DNA from: a virus
Lineage: Duplodnaviria; Caudoviricetes
DNA length: 53,233 nt
Direction: 5' to 3' (one strand)
IMG/VR virus record: IMGVR_UViG_3300030060_002588
Span: 1-53,233 of that record
Positions 22,807 through 48,632 of the stretch are shown here, in pieces. Under the pieces are notes generated by a model. The model saw only the letters and a list, made by a program, of their open reading frames with translations. It did no database searches and had not been told where the DNA came from. Position 1 is the stretch's first letter. The number at the start of each line of letters is the position of its first letter. A program made the translations under genes and the position numbers.

Positions 22807-23494
22807 CTATCATATCATTTGTTAAACCTTGAAATGCAATGCCTGTTACTTGTTGAACTTTAGCAGAACCTTTATCTTCTAAATCTAATATATCAGACAG
22901 TTTAAATAATGCTTTAAGTTTAGTGTCATCTTTCTCAGCAGTCTGAGCTACTATCTTAATATTTTCAAGCACCATTCTTTCATCTATGTCTAATTCTTGT
23001 AATATAGGTTTTAACTCTTCTTTCACAGCAGTTTTTATCCTTTCTGTTTTAATTAAATTAACAGCTTTCATTCTAGCATAACGTTTATTATTTGTAGGAA
23101 ATGCTTTTACATATGCATCTTCAGGAGATAATCCTTGAGATATATAAGTAACAAACAATTCTTCATTAGCAGTCATGCTTTTTCTATTAACAACAATTTC
23201 TTCAGGCGTACGATTACCACCAAAAGAATATATATTAGTTCTTTTGTCTGTATCCATTATTGTTGATTTTAAATTTATAAAAGTACCTGTGCAAGTACCT
23301 ACATACCCACGTTCACCATTATGTCTAAGCATATTACCTTTTCTAAGTATTTGAATAATGCAATCATCATCTGCTATTACCCAATCTCCTATATTAGCTT
23401 TACGCCAGTCCTTTAATGGTTTTATGTTAGAAGGGACTTCTTCTATAGTGTCGTAAACAGCATGCTTCATTTTATTTACTTTATAATAACGCAC
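22769..23494 (-). CDS. terS: Putative terminase small subunit with an extra N-terminal domain
   Basis: NEELFVTYISQGLSPEDAYVKAF...AVNLIKTERIKTAV HTH plus KLKALFKL helix, upstream of terL; GTG start. Confidence 0.65.
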   Translation of the reverse strand: MRYYKVNKMKHAVYDTIEEVPSNIKPLKDWRKANIGDWVIADDDCIIQILRKGNMLRHNGERGYVGTCTGTFINLKSTIMDTDKRTNIYSFGGNRTPEEIVVNRKSMTANEELFVTYISQGLSPEDAYVKAFPTNNKRYARMKAVNLIKTERIKTAVKEELKPILQELDIDERMVLENIKIVAQTAEKDDTKLKALFKLSDILDLEDKGSAKVQQVTGIAFQGLTNDMIDAAERPKEIKSE

Positions 23495-23703
23495 TATGCT
23501 TCTCCAACAATATACAACTCATCAAGCATCTTTAATGTATCTAAGTCAAAGTAGTCATCTAAAAATTCAAAATTAGAATCTATAGGTCCTACTGGATTTA
23601 CAGTAGCTATGCCTTCAGCAATATGTTCTACTGTACCTTCTTCGACATTATAAATTATCTCAAGAGTGTAAATAAGATTTCCCTTTTTGTTTTTCTTTGA
23701 CAT
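23494..23703 (-). CDS. Hypothetical protein, first gene of the late arm, probably leaderless
   Basis: 69-aa ORF with no SD; ATG lies 5 nt downstream of a -10 box. Confidence 0.65.
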   Translation of the reverse strand: MSKKNKKGNLIYTLEIIYNVEEGTVEHIAEGIATVNPVGPIDSNFEFLDDYFDLDTLKMLDELYIVGEA

Positions 23704-23708
23704 GCATA

Positions 23709-23738
23709 AATATAAAACAATGTGAGCAAATTTCCCAA
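23709..23738 (-). promoter_or_regulatory. sigma70-like promoter TTGGGA-N18-TATATT
   Basis: -35 at 23738-23733, -10 at 23714-23709. Confidence 0.5.
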
Positions 23739-23748
23739 AAAAATTTGT

Positions 23749-23986
23749 GAACCACTACCAAATTAGACGTAGGTTCCCCCTGATATAAGCAAAAATTTAA
23801 TTTTAAATTTCATTAAAGCCAGTACTCCGAGGACCCATACTTTAACTTATATTAAAACAATTTGCGGAACTATTGGGGACAAACTCTTTATCCTATTTGG
23901 AGAGCAACCCAACTTCTGAACCTCACAGCAGAACCATTGCAGGGGTACTGGAAGGCTGATAAATCTAAGTAACTGATTTGTTCCTG
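23749..23986 (-). ncRNA. Candidate structured RNA (about 240 nt) or long structured leader of the packaging operon
   Basis: No long ORF; own promoter; helices CCAGTAC/GTACTGG, CCCTG/CAGGG, TTCTG/CAGAA, TTGGG/CCCAA enclosing CTCT/AGAG; 3' GAACC/GGTTC hairpin before a T-run. Confidence 0.5.
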
Positions 23987-23992
23987 AACTAT

Positions 23993-24021
23993 AAATTACT
24001 GTAGCTTAATTCTAAAAACAA
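23993..24021 (-). promoter_or_regulatory. sigma70-like promoter TTGTTT-N17-TAATTT
   Basis: -35 at 24021-24016, -10 at 23998-23993, pointing into the structured region. Confidence 0.45.
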
Positions 24022-24177
24022 ATAAAAAAGGTTAACTTTCAAAAATTGTAGGATTTTAGTGGAGACCCCAATTTATAGGGTAGGCCCCCTGACAATTCCT
24101 TTTCCTATTTATGGTTTTGGTTATTTTTCAATCGAAAATAGGTTTCAATCAATTAGTTATATGAAAGGATATACGTT

Positions 24178-24531
24178 ATGATTATCAAAATGTATTTACA
24201 GAAAATATATGTACAGTCTCAACAAAAAGAACTATGGCAATATTCAAGCAAAGAAAGAAAAGCAGTTGCCATCTTTGGACAAGCAATGCAAGGCGTGAGC
24301 ATTAGCAAATATACTCCAGGTGTTACACAGAGTGCTAGCCCTGATATATATTCTTGCTTTGTACCACAATATACTGATGAGATAGCACAAGAAGTCATAG
24401 ACGCAAATGGTAGCAATGTGTTCTACTATGCAACAGATGACGCAGGCAACGAGGCTATCATCACAGAAGAAGAAGGCTTAGCAAAGATGAAAGAATCAAT
24501 GCAAGCAAGTACTGCACAGCCTTCAGTATAG
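24178..24531 (+). CDS. Hypothetical protein, first gene of the plus (early) arm
   Basis: 117-aa ORF with AAGGA SD. Confidence 0.7.
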   Translation: MIIKMYLQKIYVQSQQKELWQYSSKERKAVAIFGQAMQGVSISKYTPGVTQSASPDIYSCFVPQYTDEIAQEVIDANGSNVFYYATDDAGNEAIITEEEGLAKMKESMQASTAQPSV

Positions 24532-24545
24532 TATCAAAAGAACTT

Positions 24546-24753
24546 GAGAGTATTGGGAATGATTTTGGAACGCAATGCGTAGATAGTGCACATGTCTATG
24601 TCCTTGATGAACCATTGTAGCCATTAGTACATACGCAAAGGAAAGCCTATGTAGTCATTCTATACCAAACAATACTCTCTTGAAAGACATTGGATAGCCT
24701 TTGGCTATGTTTGTTGATGTGTACGTAGTCATATCTCTTGATGTATGTACACA
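24546..24753 (+). ncRNA. Structured non-coding module(s)
   Basis: GAGAGTATTG/CAATACTCTC (24546-55/24670-79) enclosing GAATGAT/GTCATTC and TACATA/TATGTA; hairpins at 24694-24708 and 24718-24753. Confidence 0.5.
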
Positions 24754-24800
24754 ATAAAACAGAATTATATAAATAAACGTCACATAAACTAGGAGTCATT

Positions 24801-24935
24801 ATGAACTATCGTAACAACAAGGCATTACAAGCCTATAAATCGTACTTATTACACACTTTATTAGCCTTTGTATGTATAACTGTAACTCTAGGTCTTATCA
24901 GCCTATTCTTACGTATTATGAGGTGGATGTACTAA
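24801..24935 (+). CDS. 44-aa single-TM early protein
   Basis: AGGAG SD; MNYRNNKALQAYKSYLLHTLLAFVCITVTLGLISLFLRIMRWMY. Confidence 0.65.
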   Translation: MNYRNNKALQAYKSYLLHTLLAFVCITVTLGLISLFLRIMRWMY

Positions 24936-24961
24936 CAAGATATAAATAGGGAGGCGTTCCT

Positions 24962-25090
24962 ATGAACGAAAAAGAGATAGACACACAAGTAAAAGCGTTG
25001 CTTGACTTAACTGACAATAGTTATGCAGCAGCAATGTTTATTGTTTGTCTTGACATTCAAGTAAAAGAGTCTAACAATTATTGCGGATGA
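24962..25090 (+). CDS. 42-aa hypothetical early protein
   Basis: GGGAGG SD; MNEKEIDTQVKALLDLTDNSYAAAMFIVCLDIQVKESNNYCG. Confidence 0.6.
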   Translation: MNEKEIDTQVKALLDLTDNSYAAAMFIVCLDIQVKESNNYCG

Positions 25091-25104
25091 TGACTCTGTC
25101 CATT

Positions 25105-25136
25105 GGGGAGACTATCTAGGAGTGGGTAGTCTCCTC
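25105..25136 (+). promoter_or_regulatory. 13-bp intergenic hairpin
   Basis: GGGGAGACTATCT-AGGAGT-GGGTAGTCTCCTC; G-U pairs favour plus-strand RNA; no U-tract. Confidence 0.6.
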
Positions 25137-25156
25137 GCAATACAAAGGAGATAAAC

Positions 25157-25411
25157 ATGGCAAAAAGAAAACAATTATATTTAGTTCACTATAACAATAT
25201 AACAGGTGAAAGTGTACAAGAAGATAACCTTTGTCCTGAGTGTGATGGTGATGGTGTCTTTGTAGGTGATTACGAAGACGGTGGTAAAGATTTAGATATA
25301 AGTCCTTGTGAGTTCTGTAACATGACAGGTGTTTCTGTACCAAACAAAGACTATAAAGTAGAAGCTTGTGATACAGAAGATGGACCATTATATAGAGTAG
25401 TAAAGATATAG
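25157..25411 (+). CDS. Small protein with a DnaJ-type zinc finger
   Basis: CPECDGDG and CEFCNMTG; AAGGAG SD. Confidence 0.75.
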   Translation: MAKRKQLYLVHYNNITGESVQEDNLCPECDGDGVFVGDYEDGGKDLDISPCEFCNMTGVSVPNKDYKVEACDTEDGPLYRVVKI

Positions 25412-25418
25412 AGTTGTC

Positions 25419-26090
25419 TGGCATACACAGGTAGAGTTTAAAGGCATCTCGAGAGCCCTCTCAAAGTATGCCAATAATTTAAAGAATTGAGTGTGATTAG
25501 CGTCATACGAAATAGTTGCCAGGTGGACAAATTACTCACGTTAGTTAAACATTGACATTCCTAGGGTGTCATAGAGTACTTCTCAAGCAAATGCCACAAC
25601 TCCTGAAACAGGATGAACTTACTATATCAAACTTATTTATAAGCGAGAACACTGGTAAGCAGTCTCTAAGCGTAGATATACGCAATCCACGGTAGATTCC
25701 TTCTTAAGACTGACTGTGGACTAGAATTATATAATTACAAGTATGTAACTAGTTTAGTAGCAGTCCTGAGAAGTTACACTAAGTTTATTCCAGGAACTCA
25801 CAATCTAGATGAAACTGTCAGCTAGTGAGCACTACTATTAAACGAAAAAAAAGCTTGTATAAATTTACAGGTTATTGCTGTAATAAGCCATGGGTCCTGT
25901 AATAAACACGCCAACGGTGAGCAGTTGGAGATACGGTTAGCATTGGTTATAAAATATGTAGCTAAGGATAAACAGTATCAATCACTTAAATAGATGTCGG
26001 AGTCTATTTATAATTATAGAGAGTCAATAACTGGTCCTGTAAGTCCTGAAACATTGGAATGAAGGCAAAGGAATATGTGAGGCTCTCTAT
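25419..26090 (+). ncRNA. Array of structured non-coding RNA modules (about 670 nt)
   Basis: No credible ORF; successive stem-closed units separated by ATAA(A)TT-like spacers; several pseudoknot-compatible pairings; G-U pairs favour the plus strand. Confidence 0.55.
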
Positions 26091-26107
26091 AAATTAAGGA
26101 GAACAAT

Positions 26108-26212
26108 ATGGAATGGACATGTATTGAATGTGAATTTCCTTATAGAGATAATGTACAAGGAGACGCTGAAGAACGTATGTGTTATAAATGTTTAAACAAG
26201 GAGAAATTATGA
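26108..26212 (+). CDS. 34-aa zinc-ribbon micro-protein
   Basis: AAGGAG SD; MEWTCIECEF...RMCYKCLNKEKL; ATGA overlap with the next gene. Confidence 0.7.
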   Translation: MEWTCIECEFPYRDNVQGDAEERMCYKCLNKEKL

Positions 26213-26496
26213 GCAATAAAAAAAGAGACTTTATACCAATTGATAAAGACCCTATTCAAATGGTTACTCAAAAATATCGCAGAAATTTGCTTTCTTATAA
26301 TATGATATTTCATTCAGATAAGTGGGAAGAAGTTCCAACAGAAGATTTATGGGAAGATGGTGAAATATCTAATACTACTTGTATGGTTAAAATTTATGAT
26401 AATGTAGTAGTAGAAGGTAAATGGAAATTAATAAGACAAGTGGAAAAAGATATAGATTATTCTACTAACAGTTCTATAAAAAAGGAGAAAAAATGA
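26209..26496 (+). CDS. Hypothetical early protein
   Basis: Start reassigned to MSNKK at 26209 because of the AAGGAG SD. Confidence 0.7.
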   Translation: MSNKKRDFIPIDKDPIQMVTQKYRRNLLSYNMIFHSDKWEEVPTEDLWEDGEISNTTCMVKIYDNVVVEGKWKLIRQVEKDIDYSTNSSIKKEKK

Positions 26497-26684
26497 TAAA
26501 TGATATGGAAAATATAGAAGATGTAGTGTTGTTATTTGACCAAGTATTTGGCAAAGATGACATAGTTGGTGAAAAAGATTTCTTTGAATTTATGAAAAGA
26601 GCTAATAGAGATTTAACAGCTAAACAAAGATATATAATATTAAGAATAACTATAAACGCATTGAGAGGAGCTAATGATGAGTGA
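26493..26684 (+). CDS. Hypothetical early protein
   Basis: 63-aa ORF, AAGGAG SD, ATGA overlap. Confidence 0.7.
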   Translation: MINDMENIEDVVLLFDQVFGKDDIVGEKDFFEFMKRANRDLTAKQRYIILRITINALRGANDE

Positions 26685-29376: not shown

Positions 29377-29446
29377 AAATTAAATGGAGTTTATGAGCCT
29401 CACGTCAGTATGAAATAGGACTACCGAGCATAACTCCTTTTAATTT
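29377..29446 (+). promoter_or_regulatory. Structured intergenic element upstream of the primase-helicase
   Basis: AAATTAAA-T-GGAGT(T)TATG ... CATAACTCC-T-TTTAATTT long stem with a 33-nt interior. Confidence 0.5.
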
Positions 29447-29465: not shown

Positions 29466-31220
29466 ATGATAAGAGAATTTGCATTTGGATTATCTAATAG
29501 GCATCATTTCTTCCCAACAGATAATTCTGTTAAATGGGAGAACGTTGCTAAAGACACATTTTTATCATTGTATGGATATGATGACGATGTTATAGAATAC
29601 TTTAATAAAAAGAAAACATTGTCTGGATATGACGGTTCTATATATATGCCTAAAGAATTTGTGTTAGATGTAGATGGTGTAGAAGTAGAAGAAGCACAAG
29701 ACAAAGCAATTAAACTTGTATCTTTATTAAGCAACTTAAATGTTCCTTGTAATATTTATTTTAGTGGCAGAGGTTTTCATATAGGCATTCCAGATAAGGC
29801 GTTTAAATGGAAGCCAGGCAGAAACTTGCATTTGTGTGTAAAAGATGAGTTAGATAAAAGAGGTATATATAAATATGCTGATGTATCTGTTACAGACAAG
29901 ACTAGAATTATTAGGCTTAACAATACATTAAACAGTAAATCTAAACTATGGAAGATTTATATAAAAAGTGAAGAATTACTTGAACTAAATGCATTAGGTA
30001 TAAAAGCTTTGGCAAATAAACCAAGACAAATAGAAATACCTACACTTGAATGTGAGCCTGTTTTTGATGTAATGGAACGAGAATCTAAAAAGCAAACTAT
30101 TAAGTTTAAAGAAACTATTGGTAAAGAGCCAGACCCTATGTTATATCCATGCATACAAACAATGTTAAAAGGTGGTACGTATGGTGGTAGACATGCTATG
30201 GCTTTACGTTTAGGTGCTTGGTTAAGATGGCGTTATCCAGAAGACGTAGTAAGATTAATCATGGAAGACTGGCGACAAAGAGTATCAACTGTTGAGCATC
30301 CATTTAAGAAAGATGAGATGGACAGGCTTATTACTGATTGTTATAAAGGTCATGGTGGTAATGGTTATCGTTATGGTTGTAATGATAAAATAATGGATAA
30401 GCATTGTAATTCTACATGTACTTTATTTAAAGCTAAGAAATCACAAGGCATTATGTCTGCTAACGATATGGAAGAAAACTTAATTAGCTGGTTAAAAGGT
30501 GATGTAGTTCCTATAGATATAGGTGGTTTATATAATAAGAACTTTCTTGTATATCCTGGTGAACTTGTAGTAATTCAGGCTCCTCCTAAATCTATGAAGA
30601 CTATGTTATTGCAGAATTGGGTTAACTCATTTAAGAAAAGAACTTACTTTTTAGAAATGGAGATGTCACCAAGGCAGATATGGCAACGTTTTATACAAAT
30701 AGAACAAGGCTGGGACGAAGACCAATTAAGACAACATTATGCTAGAGAAAATTATAGCCTAGCTGATAAGTTTAAATGGTTAAACGTAGATTATCAACCT
30801 TGTTTTGCTATAGAACTAGAAAAGAAAATAAGTATGCTTCCAGAAAAACCAGAGGTAGTTGTTATCGACCATATGGGTTTATTGTTATCTAAACATAGAG
30901 ACTTAAATCTAAAGATGGAGGAGATTGCTGGTGCTTTAACTGAAGTTGCTGTAAAACATAATATAATAGTATTTGCTATATCAGAAATAACTAAAACAGC
31001 TATGACAGAAGGTATGGGTATATCTTCTTCTAGAGGTTCTTTTAGAATTGCTTACAATGCAAGTAAAATACTTTCTTTGTCTGTACAGAAGAATCTAGAA
31101 GGTGATGTACAAAACATGGTAATTAAAACAGAAGCAAATAGAGAACGTGGTTCTTTAGATGTAATACTTAAAATAAATGGTGTTAGAATAGACACATTAA
31201 GGAGTCCAAATGTCAAATAA
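29466..31220 (+). CDS. AEP primase(-polymerase) fused to a DnaB/RecA-like helicase domain
   Basis: AEP motifs LDVD, FSGRGFH and downstream D; Cys/His middle domain (PC..RH..YGC..HC..C); P-loop-like QAPPKSMKT, LEM, Walker B VVIDH. Confidence 0.8.
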   Translation: MIREFAFGLSNRHHFFPTDNSVKWENVAKDTFLSLYGYDDDVIEYFNKKKTLSGYDGSIYMPKEFVLDVDGVEVEEAQDKAIKLVSLLSNLNVPCNIYFSGRGFHIGIPDKAFKWKPGRNLHLCVKDELDKRGIYKYADVSVTDKTRIIRLNNTLNSKSKLWKIYIKSEELLELNALGIKALANKPRQIEIPTLECEPVFDVMERESKKQTIKFKETIGKEPDPMLYPCIQTMLKGGTYGGRHAMALRLGAWLRWRYPEDVVRLIMEDWRQRVSTVEHPFKKDEMDRLITDCYKGHGGNGYRYGCNDKIMDKHCNSTCTLFKAKKSQGIMSANDMEENLISWLKGDVVPIDIGGLYNKNFLVYPGELVVIQAPPKSMKTMLLQNWVNSFKKRTYFLEMEMSPRQIWQRFIQIEQGWDEDQLRQHYARENYSLADKFKWLNVDYQPCFAIELEKKISMLPEKPEVVVIDHMGLLLSKHRDLNLKMEEIAGALTEVAVKHNIIVFAISEITKTAMTEGMGISSSRGSFRIAYNASKILSLSVQKNLEGDVQNMVIKTEANRERGSLDVILKINGVRIDTLRSPNVK

Positions 31221-38100: not shown

Positions 38101-39006
38101 TGGATTATCAGGGTCTTCTTCTAGTCTCATACTATATTCAGTATTAATCATAAACTCATTTTTATCGTTTAAAAATACCCAACCTTTCATATAAGCACCA
38201 AAAAGCTCATACATTTTTATTTCATTATCTACAGGTATTTCACCCTTTTTAACTTTTGTAGTTTTTTTAATAACTATATCTTTTAATTCTTCTGTTATTT
38301 GTTCAAATGATTTATCAAATCCTTTTACTTTATATTTTTTTTCATTTCCTGTAAGAAGATTAGGATATTGCATAAACTTTGACACTCTGTTAGCTATTCT
38401 TGATGCATGTTCTCTAGTACCTTTAGTCATTGCAAACCAAGCTCCAGTAGGGTCAGAAAAAGCAAGATTTTTAGGAGTTGTTAATGTGCCTTGAAAACTA
38501 CCAATTTTAACCCTAGTACGACCAGAAGATGTTTTTTGATTTATAATATCAGATGCTTTATTTATAAACTGAGTTAATGATGCTTCTGGATATTTTGCTA
38601 ATTCTTCAAAAGTTATAGCATTTATAGTTTCTGTTTCTTTTCCAAGTTTTGTTTTTCCTAAATATACATCTTGTGGTTTTCTAGTTAAAATATATTCATG
38701 CATCATAGGTACTATTTGTGGTTCTTGTCTAAGAATTGACATAAAGATTTGAGCAAGTCGTTCTCTTTCTTGTTTTGTACCATATGCTTTTATCCATGAT
38801 ACTTTTAAATCTTTTTCTGGAATTAATGTATGTACATCATAACCTTGTTTTAATAGTTCTTCAGACCATTCATCACTTCTTTGTTGCCATCCTGGAAAAT
38901 ATTTAGTTAAAATATTGTTATAAACCTGACCTGATATAATATCATTATTAATAATAGCACTAACGTTTTCTTTAGTTTGATTGCACTTGTTACTAGCCAT
39001 TAACAA
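35113..39006 (-). CDS. Large putative internal virion/ejection protein (about 1295 aa)
   Basis: Helical with hydrophobic C-terminal segments; likely start at 39000 by TAATG coupling to the giant gene. Confidence 0.6.
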   Translation of the reverse strand: MLMASNKCNQTKENVSAIINNDIISGQVYNNILTKYFPGWQQRSDEWSEELLKQGYDVHTLIPEKDLKVSWIKAYGTKQERERLAQIFMSILRQEPQIVPMMHEYILTRKPQDVYLGKTKLGKETETINAITFEELAKYPEASLTQFINKASDIINQKTSSGRTRVKIGSFQGTLTTPKNLAFSDPTGAWFAMTKGTREHASRIANRVSKFMQYPNLLTGNEKKYKVKGFDKSFEQITEELKDIVIKKTTKVKKGEIPVDNEIKMYELFGAYMKGWVFLNDKNEFMINTEYSMRLEEDPDNPGRQRPMRYESRTEGVPGDIMYSFQKPVRFKDYVKKEPKANFYLKLNDKQKEKFVNLTKSARPLLDTVFNYTTGEMSDVTQGILDKFVSLFDGVFAKDIMDPSTRKSFNEMAIKKIFFFDTTELDYPSQMVKDNYTLLYKDVEQANGEIKTIPYVDLLEHLTDDQKELVEIIQENFANTVSDGMVLANGGSYYPDEPEFRKNYYPTRYDSNVLREMVSKLMNELERDISKLSLAAENTEKYTVEEIAIIKDKIKILNSKLESAQTTFNNLSNYHVDSQTNTLMHLAKDNKHFKRISNAYDLRNSQRGISVFLDVLTAQMTAIERNHLASTLLDGLILIKKDQQKPESKRFLKSKKEVMALIKAGINNHRTTYSSVKESGMFGDYESYTTFSNFIRSWNPAYIIMQQLERLFPKRFSGTLYRANVDPHTQMKKSRILQTQWSGLSLNKASSAITNVSGLANTVFKAGLKKTFDAINLYFQKQEGIQKLINLSGVTNFSDFFSDAMVNGITEAQLESQVSEQLLFEMAVFVATTQDKYTKKNPASMDKAAKRYEEKIVQILSNSKSWLKKEDIYVRNLDVIQSSLRDVRLDMKLQAARKLIQFAIEKKYVIKPLVNASSFKAFLNRGYAAGVGGLGSIVRSLNLTMSNTEQALRSISFITGVDQAWKNGELRNDIHWSEFTEGEDIAKALQIGIAYSFETNFGMSTSDLPEYQYGPAKPWAKFKYWSIQRMFSDKSMIRDTERSIRKIPKDFKLDEQSGKTTANFRAFLKIVLAGLKVGQGQRVTNPEMASAVSMVRFSLPMQLFMDFAFTNPLSISRKLMRLASDFRQTGSLKSAMHSDYLSWYTLPLALGLRTWWGRGYEPPEDEEEWEKAINKWVYRIPWMGAGWTLTIDGMAGIIFATALENEKIAAQKAERLMSMMGPLKYGRPEILPFSKYTEKKAFDIARTAFQGHPKIPIVPGFTDPSTGRPSRRLVDLLRNTGQNSFLFMYDYIDEITD

Positions 39007-42000
39007 TCCTCCTTAATAATACGTTCTAATATTCTATATTTTTCTTGTTTAAGTTTTTTATCATTATTGTTTAAATCTCTTACTTGCTCATTATATAGCT
39101 TAAAGTAATTTTTAACAATTTCAGGGTCTAGCATACTAGCTTGGTCTTTTCTATCACTTACTGGAGGCATACTAAAACCCCATCTTTCTTTGCTTATTTG
39201 TCCTTCTAGAAAATAATAAGTTGCAGTTACTTGAGCTGTATTAGATAGTCCATCAAACATAGCATCGTATTGCTCCTTCCATTCTATCATTTTATCATTT
39301 CTATCTACAGATTGTGGTCCCTTAGCATTATATTCGTCACGTCTTTTTTTCCATTCATTAGACATTTTAATAGCATAATTTAAACCTTTTTGTCTTTCTT
39401 CTTGCTTTCTTTCAACAGATAGTAAATTGTCTTTGTCATATGCTTTGTTTAAATAAAACTCTTTTAGTCTATCTAATTCATTCATACTAGATACATGAGA
39501 GTTCATATGAACCATGTCGTTTACTATAAATGGTGATGCATCATATCCCATTAAATTATATTTTGCTACAGATGTCATTTCTTCTAAAATTTCACTTGGT
39601 GCAATTGCTATCATTTCTATAGGTGCTAGTTCAATACTTCCAATATTTCTAGTTTTTAATTTACTTATTATTTTAAGATTATCTGATAAGTATTTTTGTC
39701 TATTCATAATGTAAGATTTATATATACCACTCTTTTTTAATACATCTCTAAATGCAAATTGAGAACCAAATTCATAACCATTTCTAATTCTGTTAGCCTG
39801 TATATGCAATCTTACTAATGGCTGAATAACTTCATCATAGTCTTTACCTGTTTGAGATATATCAGAACCATCTTCATATGTAAATATTCTTGTCCATATA
39901 AAACTATCATTCTCATATCCCCATTGACCAAGTAATCCATATTTAGAATTATCTACAGATGCTTGCAACATTAATCTTAAAAATTCATCTACTGTTCCTG
40001 TCCATCCTTGTTTATTTTTATATGGTACATTTAAATATACTTTATCTTGTCTACCTTTTAATATTATATTTCTTCCCATTATTTCTTTAGATTCAAAGCT
40101 TTCATAAAATTTATTTATTATTCCATATACTGAGCTAGCATTAGCTATTTCACCTATAGCCATCTCTCCAGATATTAATCTATTAATTAAGCCAGCTCTT
40201 CCTTTTCTACTTAATAAAAAGTATTTTAATTTTTCGTTAACAAAATCATCTAGGTTTAAATCTCTTATTTCTAAATTATTAAAATGATTTACATAATCTA
40301 ATGTCATTTGGTCTGTAGGTAAAAATTCTATCTCTACGTGGTCACCATCAGCATCACCTTCTATTCTGTTTTTAATATCTTCTATGTTCATCATTACAAC
40401 AGCTTCTCTTTCATGCAAGAATTTTACTCTACCCATATATGTACCACCTTCATTAGCTACAGGAGACCTAGTTACCATGCCATAAACTTCATTATTTAAA
40501 AGCCATTGATTAATTTCATCGTTAGTTATTTCACTATTTGGAGCTGTTATGTTATTTGCTTCTTTATATTTGTTAAAGATATAACTAGCTTTATGTCTTG
40601 ATATACTAATTTCTTTTGGTTTTAATGTATTTGTTGCATCCATAGAGACATTGTATACACTTCCGTTTTTACCGCTTAAAGTTAAAGCAGGTTCTATTAA
40701 ATGTCCTTGTACAAGTTGGTCTATAAGCTTACCAGTTTGCTGATGAAACCCTGCACCTAATCTAGCTAATTCTAATATATGTGGTATAAAACCTATCTCA
40801 TCTACACCATGTATATCCTCTAATTTTTTAGCAATTTTTTCTGCTGCAGTTTTACCACCTTTAGTATCAGATGCAAGTCTAATAACTTCTCTAATTTTTT
40901 TCTCTACAATAGGTAAGTAATTATCTTTAAAATTGTTTATTATAACAGGATTGTCTACAAAATTGTATACTTGTTGAATATGTTTTGCATGAGGAGTGCT
41001 ACCTTCTTCAAATTTTATAAACCCAACAGAAACTCCAGGTATTACAAGTTTACCATTATTTAATAACTTACCATCTTTATCAAATAGCATTCCGTTATTT
41101 TCAGAACCAATTTTAATTTCATCACTTGTTGCTAAAAAGTCTAAATAATTTCTTTTTCCTGCTTTATAATCAGGATGTGCTTCTCCTAATACTAAATTAC
41201 CAGAATCATTAACTCTAAATAATACTTCTCTTTTTTTGTTTAATATTTTTAATCCAGGCTCAACTCTTTGATGTTGATGTTTTAATGCATAAGTATTTAT
41301 ACCATCCATCATATATTGTACAGTTTTTGCTACATTAGTACCTTTTCTTAAGCCATGCCCTTTATTTAATTTTACATTAAATGTATCTTTAGATGTCATT
41401 GTTTCTCCGTCACCTATATATTGCTTAGACTTGCCAGATACTTTTTGCATTGGAGAAAATGGCTCTCTATCTTTATATTGAAATAATACTTGTGAAGGAT
41501 TAAAATAATATGCTATTAAATTATCCATATTTTCATTTACTGTTACAGGTGTAAATGGTATTTTTAATCGCTTGTATACATTTGGTCCACCTTTTTTATC
41601 CATTAAATATTTAGGCCAAACTTCTTTCATTCCTTCATGTACTGCTATTTCTGCAGCTCTATTTGTTGCATTGTTTTTATAATCACTAGTTGCAAAAAGT
41701 TTCATAAGTTCTCTGGCTTGAGATGAAGTCATACGTTCTTCAGAAACTTCTTTACTTAAATAATCTGTAACACTTTTATTTGTTTTAGCTATGTTTTTAT
41801 GTTCTTGTTTTATATCTACAATAGCAAGCTTAGGAGAGTTTCCTCTAGAAAATGCAATAACTTTACCATGATTTTTAATTAAATAATTATCTAATGACTC
41901 TAACTCTTGTTGATTTAAAAAGTTATACAGTACGTTATTATTTATCATCATACCATTAGCAAAGATAGTTCTCTTTCTCATGTTCTTTTTAGAAAACCAA

Positions 42001-45000
42001 TTAAATAGTCCTTTAACAGTTGGTAAAAAATCTGCAAGTGTTTTCTTTTGAAAACCTGGATTGCTTCTAGATTTATCATTGTTAGCTAAAAACTTTCTTT
42101 CAGGTCCCATTAGCTCAATAGAGAAAGAACCGTCTGTATTAATTTGTACTTCATAATTTTTAATACCTGACATTTCTTTGTTGTTAGTTCTTTCCATGCT
42201 TCTTATTCTATTATAAAACTTAATCATACCTTCTTTTTTCCATTGAGGTAATGCTCCACGATATTTTATAATTTTTAAAGCTTTTGGCAACCACTTATCA
42301 AATGTATTAAATGCATCTCTTTTAGATAAAACAATCATTCTATTTAAATCTTGTTGTAATAATGTTACTCCAAAGTCTTTTATAAAAGTTAGATTATGAG
42401 AAGGTAATACTTTTTCATTTGTATTTACTAATCCCATTCTTCTAGATATGTCAAACATTGTTTCTTCGTTTTCTTCTAATTGCTCAAACATTTCATCGTA
42501 AATACTATTTTGACCTATTGGTGTTGAATTGTCACCAACTGGTTTCTTAATATTAAACTTACCTCTATACCATGTATAAAAAGTTTCTTTTACTTCAGCT
42601 CTTAATGAAGAGTCCATAATATTAAAGAAATCTTCTTTTCTAGTTTGTTTTTTAAGTGGTTTAGATATATCCCACATTCTATTAAAAAAGTCTTTTAACC
42701 AAGCTTTATCTCTAGACAATTCATCAGACATAGTAAGCTCTTGTTCTTTTTCTACATAAGCCATTAACTGAAATCTATCTGTTGGTCTAAAATCAAATTG
42801 CTCTTTTAATATAGCAGCATCAACTTTTTCTAAAGTAAATCTTCTATTTGAATTAGCAAGTAGTCTTGCAACTTCTTTAAAGCTAGTGTCTGGGTTTAAT
42901 GACCTTGCATATATATTAGTAGTCCAAGAGTTTCCAAATAGTTTAGATTTAAGCCAATCAAAAAATCTTTGTATTGCACGCATAAATACATTGTCTCTTT
43001 TTTTATGTATGTTTTCAGCAACATCTGAAATAGAATGTGCAATCAATTCATCTGATATTTCTTTATCTTTGGAATCAAATTTGTTTAAAAGCTTTACAAT
43101 GTCTTTAGGAAAAAGGTTATATCCGTCAGCTTCATGCACTAACTTATTATACTCATCAATAAAACCAGGTCTTTTCTCATCATTTTGATATGTTTCTACA
43201 ATATTATTTAATTTTTCTTGACCTAATACACTTTCTGATAATTCTTCTAATATATTATTATATAATGCTGGATTCATTTCTCTTATCTCTGTAATAAAAG
43301 GATGCATAAACTCATGGAAACCTGCGTCTGGTGTAGCTAATGCTGTATTAATAGTAACTTTTTTATCTACTTTATCATAATAAGCAGCTATATTGCCTTT
43401 ATAATTAGTTATATCATCAGATATATTGTCTGTAAATTCTAGTTCAATAGCACCTTCAAATTTATCAAACAACATTTTAGCTATCTTTTTAGTTCTTTCT
43501 TGTATTCTTTCTGGCTGTACTTCTGCTTGTCCAGATGCTATTAACATTTGCTTTTTAGATATTTTTTGAAATGCAATATCTTCTAATTCTTTTGTTTCAA
43601 CCTTAGTAACAATAGGTGTGTCTTGTATAAAAAGCCTATCTTGTGTTCTTGTTATTGCTGTATAAAACCATCTAGCTTGCAATTCTTTATCTGCAATTCC
43701 TGTGTCTCTATTTCTCATATATGCTAAATCATCTGCAACAACAAATACATTAGGATATTCCATCCCTTGTACTTTATGCCCTGTAACAGCATATCCATAT
43801 GTAAATGTAGAAATCTGCTGTCTTAGCTTAGGTCTTTTTGATGTAGGGTCTAAGTATTGCCTAAAACCTGCATCGCCTCCTACGACTATAGATTGTGGTA
43901 TTGCTGCTCTGCCTATAGTAGTAGGGAACAGTAAGCCTAATCGACCTTCATTATCTTCAAAAATATGTGCATCTACAGTTGTTGTAATAGGTGTTTTTGT
44001 TTGTGCGTCATAGGATGTTTGCAATCTAACTTTATGTGAAGATATTAGCTTAGGTTCTTTTAATATAAATTGGTCTCCATTGCTATAATCATCATTATTA
44101 GACAATGCAATAAGTCTTTCATTTTTATTAAGTGGGTTAATAGATTTACGTTCATATCTAGCATCTCTTGCAAGCCTGTTCCAACTTTCTCTAGTTTTAT
44201 TTGTATAAGTTACAGCAACTGTATTGTCTTCACCTGATAAAGCGTCAAGCCTTACCATTGTTTCAAACTCTCTTCTAAAATCAACAGGCTTAGATATTTT
44301 AACATTGTCTACATCTTCAACAGGCATTAATGCACCACTATAGCCTTTTTTATTTAAAACAGATTTCATGTTATCATTTCTAATTGCAGTAGCTAGTGTT
44401 AATACACCTCCAGCTTTTTGCCTTTGAACATCTGTCATTTGATAGTCAGTATTCTCCATTATCCTAGGGTCATCACCAACAGGTTTTAATTGAAATCCAT
44501 CACCTATATATATAACTCTAGAACCGTATGTATCTATAATTTTATTTAAATCATCTCTTAGTTTTATATCTATCATAGATGCTTCATCTACAACAATCAA
44601 TGTCTTTTTATCTGGAGTAAAGCCTGTATCTGCAAATTGTTTTGCAGTTTTTAATTCAAATCTTCCTGTTATTTTATTAGGAGGTCCGTATAAAAATTTA
44701 TGCAAAGTACTAAATTCTGCTATGTTTTTAATAGGTTGATTCTTATCTTCAATTCTTCTTACAGCTGTATTAGTAAAAGAACTTAAAACTATTTTATTAT
44801 AACCTTTATCGTTTGCTTGTCTTGCTATATTTTCTACAATAGTTGTTTTACCTGTACCAGCATAACCTGAAAAAACAAAGATATTATCATCTGTAGTATT
44901 AGGGTCGTCTGGGTTTTCTATTAAAACTTCTTTATCTATTTTAGTTAATGCTTCTGATTGTTGCTTTGTAGGTACTAATTTATCACTTCTGTTTTTTATT

Positions 45001-48000
45001 ATATTGCTAGTTTTTACCCTTGTCTTGTCTACTACTTCTTCATCTTTAAGCTCATCTTTTTTAACTCCTAATTTGTCAAGCCTTTCTTCAACTGTGTCGT
45101 CTGCTTTAATTCCAGCTTCTTCACTTCTTTTACTAAAGTCTTCTAATTTTATTTCCGACCTTTTTTGTAATATTTCATCTTCAGCTTTTCTAATATCGCT
45201 TAATTCATTTTGTATTTCAGGAGTCCCTTCTTCTCTATCTTTTTTTATAAGACTAATTTTATATTCTTCTAAGTCCGCAAGTATTTCATCTGCTTGCTCT
45301 ACAGTTAAAATTTCTTCTGATTCAGTTATTGCAATATCTTTATCATAAGTTTCTTCATCTATTTTAACCTCAGCTCTTTTGTCATCAGGTTTTTCTGGTT
45401 TATCTTCAGGTATATATTGTTTAACAGTTATTGGTTTTTCTGGAGCTTTTTCCCACACATAACCTTCTTCAAATAATTCAGGTTTGCCTTCAGGATGTAA
45501 TATGTTTTCAACATAATTTAATTGTTGTCCTTCAGGTGTTGATGATAAAACATGTTTAGCTGGTTCGTATTTAACTTTAATATATCCATCTACTTCTTCT
45601 GTCTTTGAAGGTTCAGGAACTGTAGTAGGTTTAATAATTGTTTCTTCAGTTTCTTGAGCATCAAACTCTGCTTGTACTTCATCTGTAAATTCATCTGAAT
45701 CTGTTATTTCTGGAGTAGATGCATCAAAAGCTTCTATATCACGTTCTAGTTCAGGGATATTTATTTCAGTATCATCTGTATTAACTTCTGAATTATATGG
45801 TCTGCTTAAACTTTCTTCTATAATAGCAAGATAATCTTCAACACCTTCTTGTCCAAAAAAAGACTCTTGAAAGTTTTGTTTAAATACATCTATTGGTACC
45901 TGTATTTCTTCATCTTGCAATAACTCTGGATACTCTTTAATATTTTCTACAATAACTTCAGGGTTAATAACTAAACCATCTTCTTCCATTTTTTCTAATG
46001 TACTAGAGTCTTGCGTATTTAAATTATCTACAGATACAGTATGATTTGTATCTTCATTTTTATAACCTTCCATAAAACCTTTTACTAGTATTTTAGCATC
46101 TTTATATGAAAAGACTTTTTTATTTTCTTCTACCCAGTTATATCCATCTTCATAAGGTGTTGTTGAATTTTGCTTGTCAAGTTCTTCTAAATTACCAATA
46201 GATGAGATAACATCTTCATTTGATTTATCTATTTCTTCAATACCATATTTATCTACAATTTTATTTATAGAATCAATATTTTTATCTATCTTTGTTTTTT
46301 CTCTATTAGCTTCATACTTTTGTTTTTTATTGTCAGTTATAACTTTTATAACTTCATCATTTTTATTAACAACTACAACTCTCCAAACAGGAAAGCCAGC
46401 TTCGTTGTCATATTGTTCAAGCTTAGTTTCTGCTCCTACTAGCCATTTATTAGCCCATGCTACCCTTTTTTCGCCTTCTTCTTTGTTGTAGACATTAAAG
46501 TCCATTGCAGCTTCATTAGCTGATTGAAAGTCAGGATATTCTGTTTGTATATCTTCAAGGGTTCTAGGGTCTTTGCTGTTTAATTCTACTTCATTTATTA
46601 CTTCATTGTTATTTTCATCTAAGCTAATTACTTTGTTGTATAGTTTGTATGCACCATCTTCTGTTTCTTTTACTACTACTCCACCGTTATCTAAATTGTT
46701 TAGTTGATTAACAACAGATAAATTACCTAACCTATTAGCAATACTAGAATTGTCTTGATTCATTCCAGCGATTTGGAACATTTTAGAACCAAGAGCACCT
46801 CCTGCTAAAGGCTCAAAGACTGTACCTCTCCAACTAAATCTACTAGAAAAATCTCCTCTAGGGTCCCATTTATATTCTCTTTGAAATGCAGGACCATAAA
46901 CATCTATTAAGTTTTGATTAACTGATGTAAGAACTTCTTCAAAACCTTCTGACATCATTTCGCTATTATTTTGCACAACAAATGTATTAAAAGTTCTAGC
47001 AGGTAATGTTGATAAAAAAGAATCGTTAGGGTTTATATCTATACCTTTACCTATATTCCTTATTTTATTAATTACTGGAATGTCTTTAATTTTATTTGCA
47101 AACTTATTACTAAATCTGTTGTAAAATTTTTCTCTTATAATATTAGGCGTTATTGCTTCTCTAAATCCTTTTGGAAATAAACTTATTTGCTCAATAAGAC
47201 TTGCAGAAAGTCCATGTGCTACAGCTGAATATTCAGCAGCTATTACAGCATCATAAGGATTTAAAGGTCTTGTAAATATTCTACCATCATCAGTTCGTAT
47301 AACATTTAATCGTAAATAATCTTTAACCATTTCCTCTGCAATTTGAAAATCTGGTTTAAAGTTTTCAGAGCCTCTTTCTTCTTTAATCTTTTTTATTTCT
47401 TTTGTATACTCAGCATTTTTAATTCTTATTAATTCAGATAATTCTTCAGGTTTAAGTTCCATTGGTTGTACTAAATTAGACACTGCATTAGCTAAATAAC
47501 TTGCATGCTCTAAATTATATCCAGCAACACCACTAAATAGAGCTTGTCCTAATAGTGCACCTTTTCTAGACGTTTCTGTTATAACAGCAGCATCTAAAGG
47601 GTCTGGCCCAAAACTTAAAGCTGAATATGCAGTTCCTAGCAATGCTCCTAAACTACCACCAGCTATTTTCCCTAAATATTGTTTACTTAAAATTTGACCA
47701 ACACTAATTGATGTTTGTTGTGCAAAGTTATTAATATAAGTCATTAGCTCACCACTATCGTAAAGCTCTTTCATAGTTTTGCCATTTATACTTTCTAACT
47801 TTGCTTGTATAAGTGGATTATCTTTATAAAACTGTTCTCCATACTCAATACCTTTTTTGATGTATTCAGATGCAATATAAGAATCTGCTTCATAACCTGA
47901 TTTTAAAAATTCTTTCCACATAACATCTGCTTCTTCTTCATTAAAGACACTATCAGTAAAGAAACCACTATCAAGAACTACATTTTTAAAACTTTCTTCT

Positions 48001-48632
48001 GCTTCTAATTCTGTTAAGCCAGCAAAATCTAAACTTAAAAGCGTACTAGCAGGTTCGTAAAATAGTTTAGACTGCAAAAAATTCATTTTAGTATTTTGAA
48101 AAATTCCTCCTCCAAAACCTAGTTCTTCATATTGTTTGTTAAGTTCTTCTTGAGGTGATGCTTTAATATTAGCTGATAGTATAGTCTGAATATCGTCTGG
48201 TCTAGTTACGTTTAAAAAATTAAGAATTTGACTGTCACTCATGTTAGGAAAATTATGCCTGTTGTCTTCTACATAATTTTGTAATGTGTATTGTGGATTT
48301 AATTCTGAAGAACCGTCTTCGTTAACTTTAAATGCATCTTTATTATCATACAGTTCTGTCCCTGCTTGTTCAACTGTAAATTTTGGAATAATGTCTGTTG
48401 TAAGATTTTTATGCTGCTCATACAACTTAGTTAACTCATCTAAAGCATTATTAAGTTGTTGTTTGTTAACTATGTTAGTATTATTTAATGCACTATTAGG
48501 CTTTAAATCTCCAGAATCTATAGCAGTTTTATTAGTTTTAATACTATCTTGATAGTTAGCTTTATGAAGTTTAAGCTCTTCTTCTTTTTCTTCTATAAGC
48601 TTACTAAGATTGTATAAATCTTGGTAACTCAT
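39000..48632 (-). CDS. 3210-aa polyvalent virion protein: SF1B helicase, zincin-like HExxH domain and double-psi beta-barrel RNA polymerase
   Basis: GYAGTGKT, VVDEASM, GDGFQLKPV, TGHKVQG, YTAITR; HEFMH; GDG, K..K, RSP, GDADGD, IGEIAN, ASVDNSKYG. Confidence 0.8.
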   Translation of the reverse strand: MSYQDLYNLSKLIEEKEEELKLHKANYQDSIKTNKTAIDSGDLKPNSALNNTNIVNKQQLNNALDELTKLYEQHKNLTTDIIPKFTVEQAGTELYDNKDAFKVNEDGSSELNPQYTLQNYVEDNRHNFPNMSDSQILNFLNVTRPDDIQTILSANIKASPQEELNKQYEELGFGGGIFQNTKMNFLQSKLFYEPASTLLSLDFAGLTELEAEESFKNVVLDSGFFTDSVFNEEEADVMWKEFLKSGYEADSYIASEYIKKGIEYGEQFYKDNPLIQAKLESINGKTMKELYDSGELMTYINNFAQQTSISVGQILSKQYLGKIAGGSLGALLGTAYSALSFGPDPLDAAVITETSRKGALLGQALFSGVAGYNLEHASYLANAVSNLVQPMELKPEELSELIRIKNAEYTKEIKKIKEERGSENFKPDFQIAEEMVKDYLRLNVIRTDDGRIFTRPLNPYDAVIAAEYSAVAHGLSASLIEQISLFPKGFREAITPNIIREKFYNRFSNKFANKIKDIPVINKIRNIGKGIDINPNDSFLSTLPARTFNTFVVQNNSEMMSEGFEEVLTSVNQNLIDVYGPAFQREYKWDPRGDFSSRFSWRGTVFEPLAGGALGSKMFQIAGMNQDNSSIANRLGNLSVVNQLNNLDNGGVVVKETEDGAYKLYNKVISLDENNNEVINEVELNSKDPRTLEDIQTEYPDFQSANEAAMDFNVYNKEEGEKRVAWANKWLVGAETKLEQYDNEAGFPVWRVVVVNKNDEVIKVITDNKKQKYEANREKTKIDKNIDSINKIVDKYGIEEIDKSNEDVISSIGNLEELDKQNSTTPYEDGYNWVEENKKVFSYKDAKILVKGFMEGYKNEDTNHTVSVDNLNTQDSSTLEKMEEDGLVINPEVIVENIKEYPELLQDEEIQVPIDVFKQNFQESFFGQEGVEDYLAIIEESLSRPYNSEVNTDDTEINIPELERDIEAFDASTPEITDSDEFTDEVQAEFDAQETEETIIKPTTVPEPSKTEEVDGYIKVKYEPAKHVLSSTPEGQQLNYVENILHPEGKPELFEEGYVWEKAPEKPITVKQYIPEDKPEKPDDKRAEVKIDEETYDKDIAITESEEILTVEQADEILADLEEYKISLIKKDREEGTPEIQNELSDIRKAEDEILQKRSEIKLEDFSKRSEEAGIKADDTVEERLDKLGVKKDELKDEEVVDKTRVKTSNIIKNRSDKLVPTKQQSEALTKIDKEVLIENPDDPNTTDDNIFVFSGYAGTGKTTIVENIARQANDKGYNKIVLSSFTNTAVRRIEDKNQPIKNIAEFSTLHKFLYGPPNKITGRFELKTAKQFADTGFTPDKKTLIVVDEASMIDIKLRDDLNKIIDTYGSRVIYIGDGFQLKPVGDDPRIMENTDYQMTDVQRQKAGGVLTLATAIRNDNMKSVLNKKGYSGALMPVEDVDNVKISKPVDFRREFETMVRLDALSGEDNTVAVTYTNKTRESWNRLARDARYERKSINPLNKNERLIALSNNDDYSNGDQFILKEPKLISSHKVRLQTSYDAQTKTPITTTVDAHIFEDNEGRLGLLFPTTIGRAAIPQSIVVGGDAGFRQYLDPTSKRPKLRQQISTFTYGYAVTGHKVQGMEYPNVFVVADDLAYMRNRDTGIADKELQARWFYTAITRTQDRLFIQDTPIVTKVETKELEDIAFQKISKKQMLIASGQAEVQPERIQERTKKIAKMLFDKFEGAIELEFTDNISDDITNYKGNIAAYYDKVDKKVTINTALATPDAGFHEFMHPFITEIREMNPALYNNILEELSESVLGQEKLNNIVETYQNDEKRPGFIDEYNKLVHEADGYNLFPKDIVKLLNKFDSKDKEISDELIAHSISDVAENIHKKRDNVFMRAIQRFFDWLKSKLFGNSWTTNIYARSLNPDTSFKEVARLLANSNRRFTLEKVDAAILKEQFDFRPTDRFQLMAYVEKEQELTMSDELSRDKAWLKDFFNRMWDISKPLKKQTRKEDFFNIMDSSLRAEVKETFYTWYRGKFNIKKPVGDNSTPIGQNSIYDEMFEQLEENEETMFDISRRMGLVNTNEKVLPSHNLTFIKDFGVTLLQQDLNRMIVLSKRDAFNTFDKWLPKALKIIKYRGALPQWKKEGMIKFYNRIRSMERTNNKEMSGIKNYEVQINTDGSFSIELMGPERKFLANNDKSRSNPGFQKKTLADFLPTVKGLFNWFSKKNMRKRTIFANGMMINNNVLYNFLNQQELESLDNYLIKNHGKVIAFSRGNSPKLAIVDIKQEHKNIAKTNKSVTDYLSKEVSEERMTSSQARELMKLFATSDYKNNATNRAAEIAVHEGMKEVWPKYLMDKKGGPNVYKRLKIPFTPVTVNENMDNLIAYYFNPSQVLFQYKDREPFSPMQKVSGKSKQYIGDGETMTSKDTFNVKLNKGHGLRKGTNVAKTVQYMMDGINTYALKHQHQRVEPGLKILNKKREVLFRVNDSGNLVLGEAHPDYKAGKRNYLDFLATSDEIKIGSENNGMLFDKDGKLLNNGKLVIPGVSVGFIKFEEGSTPHAKHIQQVYNFVDNPVIINNFKDNYLPIVEKKIREVIRLASDTKGGKTAAEKIAKKLEDIHGVDEIGFIPHILELARLGAGFHQQTGKLIDQLVQGHLIEPALTLSGKNGSVYNVSMDATNTLKPKEISISRHKASYIFNKYKEANNITAPNSEITNDEINQWLLNNEVYGMVTRSPVANEGGTYMGRVKFLHEREAVVMMNIEDIKNRIEGDADGDHVEIEFLPTDQMTLDYVNHFNNLEIRDLNLDDFVNEKLKYFLLSRKGRAGLINRLISGEMAIGEIANASSVYGIINKFYESFESKEIMGRNIILKGRQDKVYLNVPYKNKQGWTGTVDEFLRLMLQASVDNSKYGLLGQWGYENDSFIWTRIFTYEDGSDISQTGKDYDEVIQPLVRLHIQANRIRNGYEFGSQFAFRDVLKKSGIYKSYIMNRQKYLSDNLKIISKLKTRNIGSIELAPIEMIAIAPSEILEEMTSVAKYNLMGYDASPFIVNDMVHMNSHVSSMNELDRLKEFYLNKAYDKDNLLSVERKQEERQKGLNYAIKMSNEWKKRRDEYNAKGPQSVDRNDKMIEWKEQYDAMFDGLSNTAQVTATYYFLEGQISKERWGFSMPPVSDRKDQASMLDPEIVKNYFKLYNEQVRDLNNNDKKLKQEKYRILERIIKEDC

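Follow-up and report, generated by a model that had tools for sequence, protein, structure and literature searches.

The question raised by this locus is what a phage keeps in nearly 700 nucleotides of its early region where no protein-coding gene can be recognized. The source record is a complete 53,233-bp IMG/VR virus sequence (IMGVR_UViG_3300030060_002588) with a G+C content of ~31%, which was analyzed over its full length and is referred to below as the window. Genes for the terminase, portal, and major head protein are located on the minus strand, and the early and replication genes form a plus-strand block extending from ~24.2 to 35 kb, which encodes a Sak4-like protein, a primase-helicase, a Gp157-like protein, and an SPL-like radical-SAM protein. 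Because the terminase shares only 25–28% identity with its counterparts in cultured marine phages of Roseobacter, Lentibacter, and Methylophilales, the phage was considered to represent an uncultured marine lineage. The G+C content is 0.353–0.368 across positions 24001–26000, as compared with ~0.30–0.33 in the adjoining 1-kb intervals. The small proteins encoded by the two genes flanking the stretch of interest (Table 1) both have paired CxxC motifs. The 84-aa flanking protein has a weak match to a DnaJ-type zinc finger (E 0.004, under the Pfam cut-off), and a search with its gene returned zero related loci. Binding of the RNAs by these two products is conceivable.

A previous, sequence-only reading of the stretch had described a series of distinct, folded plus-strand RNA units separated by AU-rich spacers, and had proposed either a cassette of small RNAs cut at the spacers or structured single-stranded DNA (ssDNA) signals for a virion RNA polymerase (RNAP) or helicase. 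The analysis presented here indicates that the stretch is probably a cluster of independent plus-strand structured RNAs that comprises trans-acting small RNAs together with a cis-acting leader. The cluster contains at least five separate conserved elements: A, B, C, D1 together with H, and F. Each of these is self-contained: a stem closes it, its core is invariant, and a hairpin at its periphery varies.

Table 1. Positions of the elements discussed in the text, in window coordinates. Fold z values refer to units folded singly; the proportion of shuffles folding as well is given in parentheses.
Feature	Position	Strand	Description	Basis
Conserved block	23780-24160	+	within the divergent intergenic region 23704-24177	
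Flanking gene	25157-25411	+		
ORF-free array of structured RNA modules	25412-26107	+		no ORF, fold z, separate module conservation
Module A	25419-25473	+	55-nt hairpin, 8-bp closing stem	z -2.82 (0/200)
Module B	25491-25730	+	240-nt multi-branched RNA, 9 helices; 5' hairpin followed by a junction	covariance model R1
B, junction-closing helix	25512-17/25725-30	+		
B, helix H5	25553-25571	+	arm	
B, 9-nt loop of H5	25558-25566	+	contains palindrome CCUAGG	alignment A3
B, variable arm	25610-25666	+	arm	
B, helix H8	25670-25683	+	arm	
B, helix H9	25687-25719	+	arm	
Module C	25736-25859	+	~124 nt, invariant core plus one variable hairpin	z -2.74 (1/200)
Module D1	25865-25902	+	7-bp stem UUACAGG/CCUGUAA around a small AU hairpin and a single-stranded 6-nt palindrome	
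D1 palindrome	25888-25893	+	CCAUGG, in internal loop	
Module H	25906-25928	+	ACACG, then 5-bp stem with conserved 8-nt loop GGUGAGCA	
Remaining sequence	25929-26018	+	includes hairpin E	
Hairpin E	25987-26010	+		z -0.72 (49/200)
Module F	26019-26087	+	irregular long hairpin: 7-bp closing stem P1, conserved internal loops, 4-bp helix P2, variable apical hairpin	z -2.96 (2/200)
Sequence 3' of F		+	AU-rich linker, SD, then ATG at 26108	
Flanking gene	26108-26212	+	34-aa zinc-ribbon-like ORF headed by F	
Element G	29391-29432	+	small conserved element directly upstream of the primase-helicase gene, outside the stretch	
Primase-helicase gene	29466-31220	+		
3210-aa protein gene	39000-48632	-		

The stretch is non-coding and folds on the plus strand

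The longest ORF within 25412–26107 is 47 aa. All three stop codons, TAA, TAG, and TGA, are present in each of the six frames, so that stop reassignment opens no gene (the longest run under a single reassignment is 77 codons), and the original description of the stretch as ORF-free is upheld. When 25412–26095 was folded, the plus strand had an MFE z of −3.71 with 0 of 20 shuffles folding as well, versus a z of −1.10 and 3 of 20 shuffles as good for the minus strand of the same sequence, in agreement with the proposed succession of units folded on the plus strand. At the level of single units, the shuffled control divides the proposal: A, C, and F are significantly better than shuffles (Table 1), whereas B (z −0.34, 68/200), D (z −0.57, 55/200), and E are not. 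Thermodynamics alone thus gives B, D, and E no support. For B and D, however, the comparative data described below overrule the shuffle-level folding.

The linkers between the stems are single-stranded and A/U-rich (for example, AUAAUU and AUAAAUU), which confirms the AU-rich spacers seen earlier. The units are also not a repeat array, as no internal repeats occur within the stretch. The hexamer GTCCTG is nevertheless common to C, D1, and F, with four of its nine plus-strand copies in the 53-kb window falling in the stretch as compared with 0.12 expected. As for the unit limits originally given, those of A, B, C, and F were close. The unit claimed at 25865–25950 instead proved to consist of D1, H, and other sequence. 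A hairpin is indeed present in the place of the claimed unit E, but it has no homologue in any relative locus; E is window-specific and is not supported as a conserved element.

No module belongs to a catalogued RNA family. The catalogue searched was Rfam 15, whose 4227 models include ROOL, OLE, raiA, HEARO, 6S, RNase P, tmRNA, and Y-RNA-like RNAs and also cover riboswitches and self-cleaving ribozymes. At the gathering score, there were zero matches in the window. With E values up to 10, the region 23400–26500 yielded chance-level hits only (E 1.1–10, 12–21 bits), all well short of the respective gathering scores and none of them inside modules A–F, so the Rfam check suggested earlier did not connect the units to a known family. 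The hit nearest to the modules was to a 29-nt CRISPR-repeat model lacking base pairs, located at 26092–26120 on the minus strand over the SD and start codon. None of the ribozyme models matched the stretch, ARAGORN reported 0 tRNA or tmRNA genes in the window, and a blastn search of INPHARED phages with 25300–26200 gave no match. Among 20 sequencing runs listed, none was an RNA run containing the stretch.

Modules are conserved one by one and shuffled among relatives

Twenty related IMG/VR loci, designated here by L numbers, were collected via the primase-helicase. Each of the closer relatives has an ORF-free gap of ~740–1180 nt at the same place. The small ORFs flanking the stretch have almost no DNA match in these relatives, and the modules are better conserved. 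Analysis by blastn indicated that the window units are conserved individually and that their order differs from relative to relative; for C, D1, H, and F, too, conserved copies exist in marine relatives. The order is A-B-C-D-F in the window, B-C-F-D in L003 and L006, B-F-D in L039, L044, and L045, F-B-D in L026, B-D-F in L033 and L047, F-C...B-D in L035, and tRNA-B-x-F-x-D in L004. The tRNA in the last of these is a tRNA-Met (CAT) on the early strand (L004:3618–3686). It ends at 3686, with the B match starting at 3684 on the same strand. A second tRNA-Met (CAT) on the early strand was found at L020:3124–3194. The differing module order, this co-oriented tRNA in the array of a relative, and the covariation described below all favor the earlier suggestion that the units are independent plus-strand RNAs.

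Module C of the window is 99.2% identical to L008:4390–4517, whereas the identity between these phages is only 73% in B. This difference points to module exchange by recombination and is a sign of a recent event confined to a single module.

The arrays of relatives contain some further structured sequences. Within the array of L004 (4590–4660, +), a T-loop-like run, GGTTCGATTCC, is accompanied by a flanking acceptor-like stem, and the segment looks like a truncated tRNA-like element, for which ARAGORN makes no call. Another module, with no counterpart in the window, lies after B at L004:3935–4150 and L008:4268–4390; its opening arm is nearly the same as the closing-stem arm of F, and its core is different. 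Upstream of the stretch in the window itself, the plus-strand block in the divergent intergenic region (Table 1) is ~81% conserved in relatives, with invariant runs even in distant ones and one variable hairpin. Support from RNAalifold is weak (4/24 pairs compensatory, −6.2 kcal/mol), and the block may hold the early promoter and/or a further RNA element.

Module B is a large covarying RNA

The module with the strongest comparative support is B. Covariance model R1 retrieved, among the matches listed, 24 copies of which 22 are distinct. In their alignment, 95.8% of cells are paired as compared with 32–42% when partners are slid by 1–3 columns, 20 of the 53 pairs are compensatory with both sides changed (104 cells), and the covariation score was reached by 0 of 500 shuffles, all among the matches listed; with the alignment fitted to the model and the sequences related to one another, the paired and covariation figures lean high and there were fewer independent events than the cell counts suggest. 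Entire helices (H4, H5, H7, and H8) switch sequence and remain paired. B also has an arm of variable length and long invariant unpaired runs. Nine of its 53 pairs are predominantly G-U, which identifies the plus strand as the one that folds. The corresponding positions on the other strand would be C-A mismatches, and the argument from G-U pairs made in the sequence-only reading therefore holds.

The loop of helix H5 contains a self-complementary hexamer. It reads CCTAGG in all 23 rows of alignment A3 that cover the loop, and all five stem pairs of H5 are compensatory. Because the hexamer never varies, it provides no covariation evidence for pairing. Sites in the phage complementary to the invariant loop occur at chance level (2 matches including the loop itself, 0.82 expected). 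A UCCUG/CAGGA hairpin within B was also considered and was rejected since it is not conserved. When the B-loop pattern was used as a query, 10 viral stretches and 18 metagenome contigs were found among the matches listed, all of them marine by name, with 0 matches in 185,579 bacterial and archaeal species genomes.

Modules A, C, and H

Copies of A that are 88–89% identical to that of the window occur in L038, again directly before B, and in L017 and L046, where they lie between two ORFs. Its 3 distinct sequences are too few for covariation. The core of C is identical in 6 sequences, and its variable stem covaries (CUCAC/GUGAG, CUCAU/AUGAG, CCUAU/AUAGG, and CCUAA/UUAGG). The cores of C and of F (below) are nearly invariant, which places their main helices beyond covariation testing. 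For H, 7 distinct copies with the ACACG flank were found, and their stems covary (CCAAC, CCAGC, ACAGC, GUAAC, and GACAAC, each with a matching 3' arm). At 25 occurrences of the H loop octamer elsewhere, the stems are just 0–3 bp. Thus, covariation, which had been put forward as a test of the units, was found in homologues of B and, for C, H, and F, in the stems that vary.

A palindrome in D1 changes sequence and stays self-complementary

At one and the same place, a 6-nt palindrome is present in 13 of 13 distinct sequences of D1, in five forms: CCAUGG (4), CUAUAG (3), UCUAGA (3), CUGCAG (2), and UCAUGA (1). As a control, 95 unrelated sequences matching the D1 search pattern were examined, of which 15 had a palindrome in that zone. 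These come from a wide pattern scan in which 95 of the 108 distinct hits were unrelated inverted repeats and one new D1 sequence was gained. The two central bases of the palindrome are adjacent and so cannot pair inside one molecule. In 8 of 11 loci, the palindrome is single within ±1300 nt, which makes pairing between two RNA copies the simplest explanation. D1 therefore has the makings of a kissing element, namely a self-complementary single-stranded run in which adjacent central bases covary, and the switching of its palindrome is a signature of symmetric intermolecular pairing.

Two other partners for the palindrome were considered and rejected. A partner within the same molecule was discarded because the MFE pairing fails by eye in other sequences, and a second nearby copy is absent in the eight loci just mentioned.

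Module F is mainly a portable leader

An exact 20-mer of the 3' core of F served as the retrieval key and was found on at least 119 viral contigs. Among bacterial and archaeal genomes, it is present on only two contigs, both from MAGs (a Bacteroidales and a Flavobacteriales), which is too little for naming a host. The extraction gave, among the matches listed, 146 3' cores, 140 of them with a 5' arm, and from these 108 distinct copies of 64–189 nt; as the copies were fetched by the 3'-core 20-mer, that arm is invariant in part because of the way in which they were retrieved. An identical core is shared by 16 sequences, among them those of relatives with 63–65% primase identity. Among the matches listed, P1 closes all 108 copies in the MFE fold, and of its 17 variant 5' arms, 14 stay paired via G-U, and in the other 3 the terminal pair alone is lost. 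Two sites in F take variable hairpins, and the variable stems covary or always re-form. This combination of a conserved core and variable peripheral stems is aptamer-like. With model R2, a single F copy was detected in the window; among the matches listed, a diverged F lies upstream of the primase gene in L003, L005, and L006, and truncated copies are found in L013 and L014.

The sequence that follows F was classified in 116 distinct contexts among the matches listed. An SD and an ORF of at least 30 aa are present within 60 nt in 72, another module follows in 5 (4 D1, 1 B), the contig ends in 5, and something else is found in 34. A few of these 34 contexts without a detected ORF look like missed SD-ATG starts, and together with the 5 that run into another module they blur the split between cis and trans roles. 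The distance from F to the start codon is 17–42 nt in most copies (among the matches listed). The genes behind F, again among the matches listed, mostly have replication or recombination annotations or lack a functional annotation. They encode primase-helicases (10), an 89-aa family (9), two ~500-aa families without a PHROG match (7 and 5), Sak4-like proteins (3), an SPL-like family (3), a Cas4-like exonuclease, an HNH endonuclease, and many singletons. In 100 distinct contexts (among the matches listed), A/T accounts for at least 90% at the 3 positions immediately preceding F and at 5 of the first 7 that follow, and the AU-rich spacing seen in the window thus extends to the flanks of F elsewhere. 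No conserved promoter was found upstream of F, and neither a terminator nor a clear SD-sequestering helix was identified in it. Based on its contexts and the genes downstream, F is mainly a portable 5' leader of replication and recombination genes, and it is a candidate general control element for such genes in phages. The sequence-only reading had missed this widespread leader role, as it had the lack of support for E and the comparative strength of B despite its shuffle-level fold.

Several relatives carry F where the window has element G. Copies of G that are 84–97% identical are present in L011, L019, and L045, and in L006 the element lies directly after B. A G-like copy (74% identical) is located in the ORF-free gap of L012. 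Positions 29395–29403 of G are the exact reverse complement of 26077–26085 in the 3' arm of F, a match that may be due to chance.

A probable mixed cluster of RNAs and its alternatives

The following sequence of events would account for these observations. The modules would be transcribed rightward together with the early and replication operon, and host endonucleases would separate them at the AU-rich linkers, as in tRNA precursors. B, C, and D1/H would give rise to stable small RNAs acting in trans, and the single-stranded palindromic hexamers of B and D1 would allow two copies of the same RNA to pair with each other. F would act in cis as the 5' leader of the following gene, possibly as a control element binding a protein or ligand or as a stabilizing 5' structure.

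We find it unlikely that the entire stretch works in cis only, as an extended, structured leader or intercistronic segment in which the units serve the early genes downstream as processing sites, 5' or 3' stabilizers, antitermination elements, or translational operators, orphaned by the loss of small genes between them. F, A, and G do occur singly in relatives directly upstream of or between ORFs, F is followed by an SD and ORF in the 72 of 116 contexts noted above (among the matches listed), and the linkers are AU-rich. The array also lies inside a co-oriented operon with 12 promoter-like sites versus 13.0 expected and 2 terminator-like sites versus 1.3 expected. At the loci examined, however, B is followed by a module, other sequence, or a contig end, and never directly by an SD and ORF. 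It is also large, with its 240 nt and nine helices, and has many invariant unpaired bases. Loops that never vary, a palindrome that switches, and the presence of a tRNA gene among the modules would be unexpected for processing or stabilizing hairpins, and the genes behind F are diverse.

The mixed cluster of trans-acting RNAs and a cis-acting leader can be taken one step further to a reading that we consider rather improbable, in which the modules belong to a modular system of RNA-only assembly, with separately encoded B, D1, and perhaps others self-associating through symmetric palindromic contacts into dimers or larger complexes during infection. Such a system would resemble the GOLLD/ROOL cages of relatives split into pieces, with modules swapped between phages by recombination. 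Quite improbable is the idea that the array is instead a single long, ornate RNA with several domains, akin to GOLLD and ROOL, that assembles whole into a homo-oligomer. The palindromic, kissing-type elements in B and D1 would fit such an RNA, as would the array lengths of ~700–1200 nt, which are within the GOLLD/ROOL range. GOLLD and ROOL are reported to be phage-encoded, to be found often near tRNA genes, and to form RNA-only cages via symmetric kissing loops. Moreover, the close relative L004 (record IMGVR_UViG_3300030329_004093; primase 83% identical) has a true GOLLD RNA in the same early region as its tRNA-Met (RF02032, 192.7 bits, L004:1788–2208, +), 1.4 kb upstream of its module array. 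GOLLD was detected in one of the five related records searched. The window is without it: RF02032 was not matched at its gathering score (150 bits) or, over 23400–26500, with E values up to 10, L004 serving as the positive control, and no match to ROOL or another large RNA in Rfam was found at E up to 10 either. A single RNA is also at odds with the variation in module order and content among close relatives, with the lone modules that occur before genes, and with the exchange of C independently of B. In an unsystematic look, no covariation between modules was noticed.

That the stretch consists of ssDNA signals (a replication origin, loading sites for primase or helicase, or hairpin promoters for a virion polymerase) is highly improbable. 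It does lie just upstream of the replication module with the genes for the Sak4-like protein and primase-helicase, and an SF1 helicase domain is present in the 3210-aa protein of the phage. The conserved G-U pairs, however, would be weak as G-T pairs in DNA and are on the non-template strand, and the other strand would have C-A mismatches and has a z of only −1.10. These wobble pairs and the size of the units, which are far larger than hairpin promoters, tell against the virion RNAP signals offered in the sequence-only reading. A tRNA gene in line with the modules and the location of F at a fixed short distance before the start codons of many different genes are likewise difficult to reconcile with DNA signals. 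Iterons and repeats are absent, and the strand switch and skew minimum are elsewhere, at ~23.7–24.2 kb. In the 3210-aa protein, Pfam detects only the SF1 (UvrD/PIF1-like) helicase/AAA region at residues 1245–1669 and no polymerase domain, although a divergent polymerase could escape detection. Finally, decayed coding sequence or a gene under another genetic code, for which nothing speaks except the position among small ORFs, can be dismissed, as it is already contradicted by stop codons in all six frames and by the covariation of B, with substitutions that are compensatory in helices and not concentrated at third codon positions, and the remaining window reads well under table 11.

Significance and comparison with known systems

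Phage-encoded structured RNAs such as GOLLD and ROOL are a puzzle of long standing. The lineage described here supplies several compact new RNA families, with more than 100 natural variants in the case of F, and the modular arrangement reveals which parts are self-sufficient. The two self-pairing signatures, in B and D1, are within reach of short transcripts. If it is true that the RNAs are expressed early and act in trans, they would be candidates for host takeover or counter-defense by RNA. A 2023 catalogue comprises 10,006 structured RNAs predicted from viral sequences (Fremin et al., PMC10690425), and these motifs may be among them. No description of the motifs was found in the literature searched, which excluded the supplementary lists of PMC10690425.

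Like riboswitch-type or protein-binding leaders, F combines an invariant core in internal loops with variable stems and is positioned 17–42 nt before start codons in most copies. Unlike riboswitches, it has no match to an Rfam riboswitch model, the genes downstream are diverse, and another module follows directly in 5 of 116 contexts (among the matches listed).

N4-type virion RNAP promoters are small template-strand DNA hairpins that function with a virion RNAP. The modules differ from them in their size of 40–240 nt and in their G-U pairs, which demand the plus (non-template) strand. In the tRNA gene cluster of phage T4, small stable RNAs are cut from a common precursor by host RNases. Like the modules of the relative, the small stable RNAs of T4 are phage-encoded, structured, and in line with tRNA genes. 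Unlike the T4 cluster, the window itself has no tRNA, and only L004 has one inside the array; no homology is claimed.

The HIV-1 dimerization site is a 9-nt loop with a 6-nt palindrome. The H5 loop of B resembles it, as it is a hairpin loop of 9 nt whose center is a 6-nt palindrome. OLE and GOLLD have palindromic loops that are similar to D1 in that the sequence changes and self-complementarity is kept. The same argument from palindrome switching was applied to those loops and was reported to be confirmed there by cryo-EM (bioRxiv 10.1101/2024.12.08.627333). Unlike these switching palindromes, CCUAGG of B never varies. The D1 palindrome, a candidate dimerization element, differs from kissing hairpin loops in lying in an internal loop.

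The closest comparison is with GOLLD and ROOL themselves. They are reported to be phage-encoded and tRNA-associated and to have a conserved core with variable peripheral stems, as in this array, and self-complementary loops implying pairing between copies, as in B and D1. In the relative L004, a real GOLLD lies near the same kind of array. Unlike GOLLD and ROOL, each of which is one RNA of fixed architecture, the array shares no sequence or structure match with them and is built of separable units of 40–240 nt in varying order. In these respects, the array consists of phage-encoded structured RNAs of the kind found next to tRNA genes.
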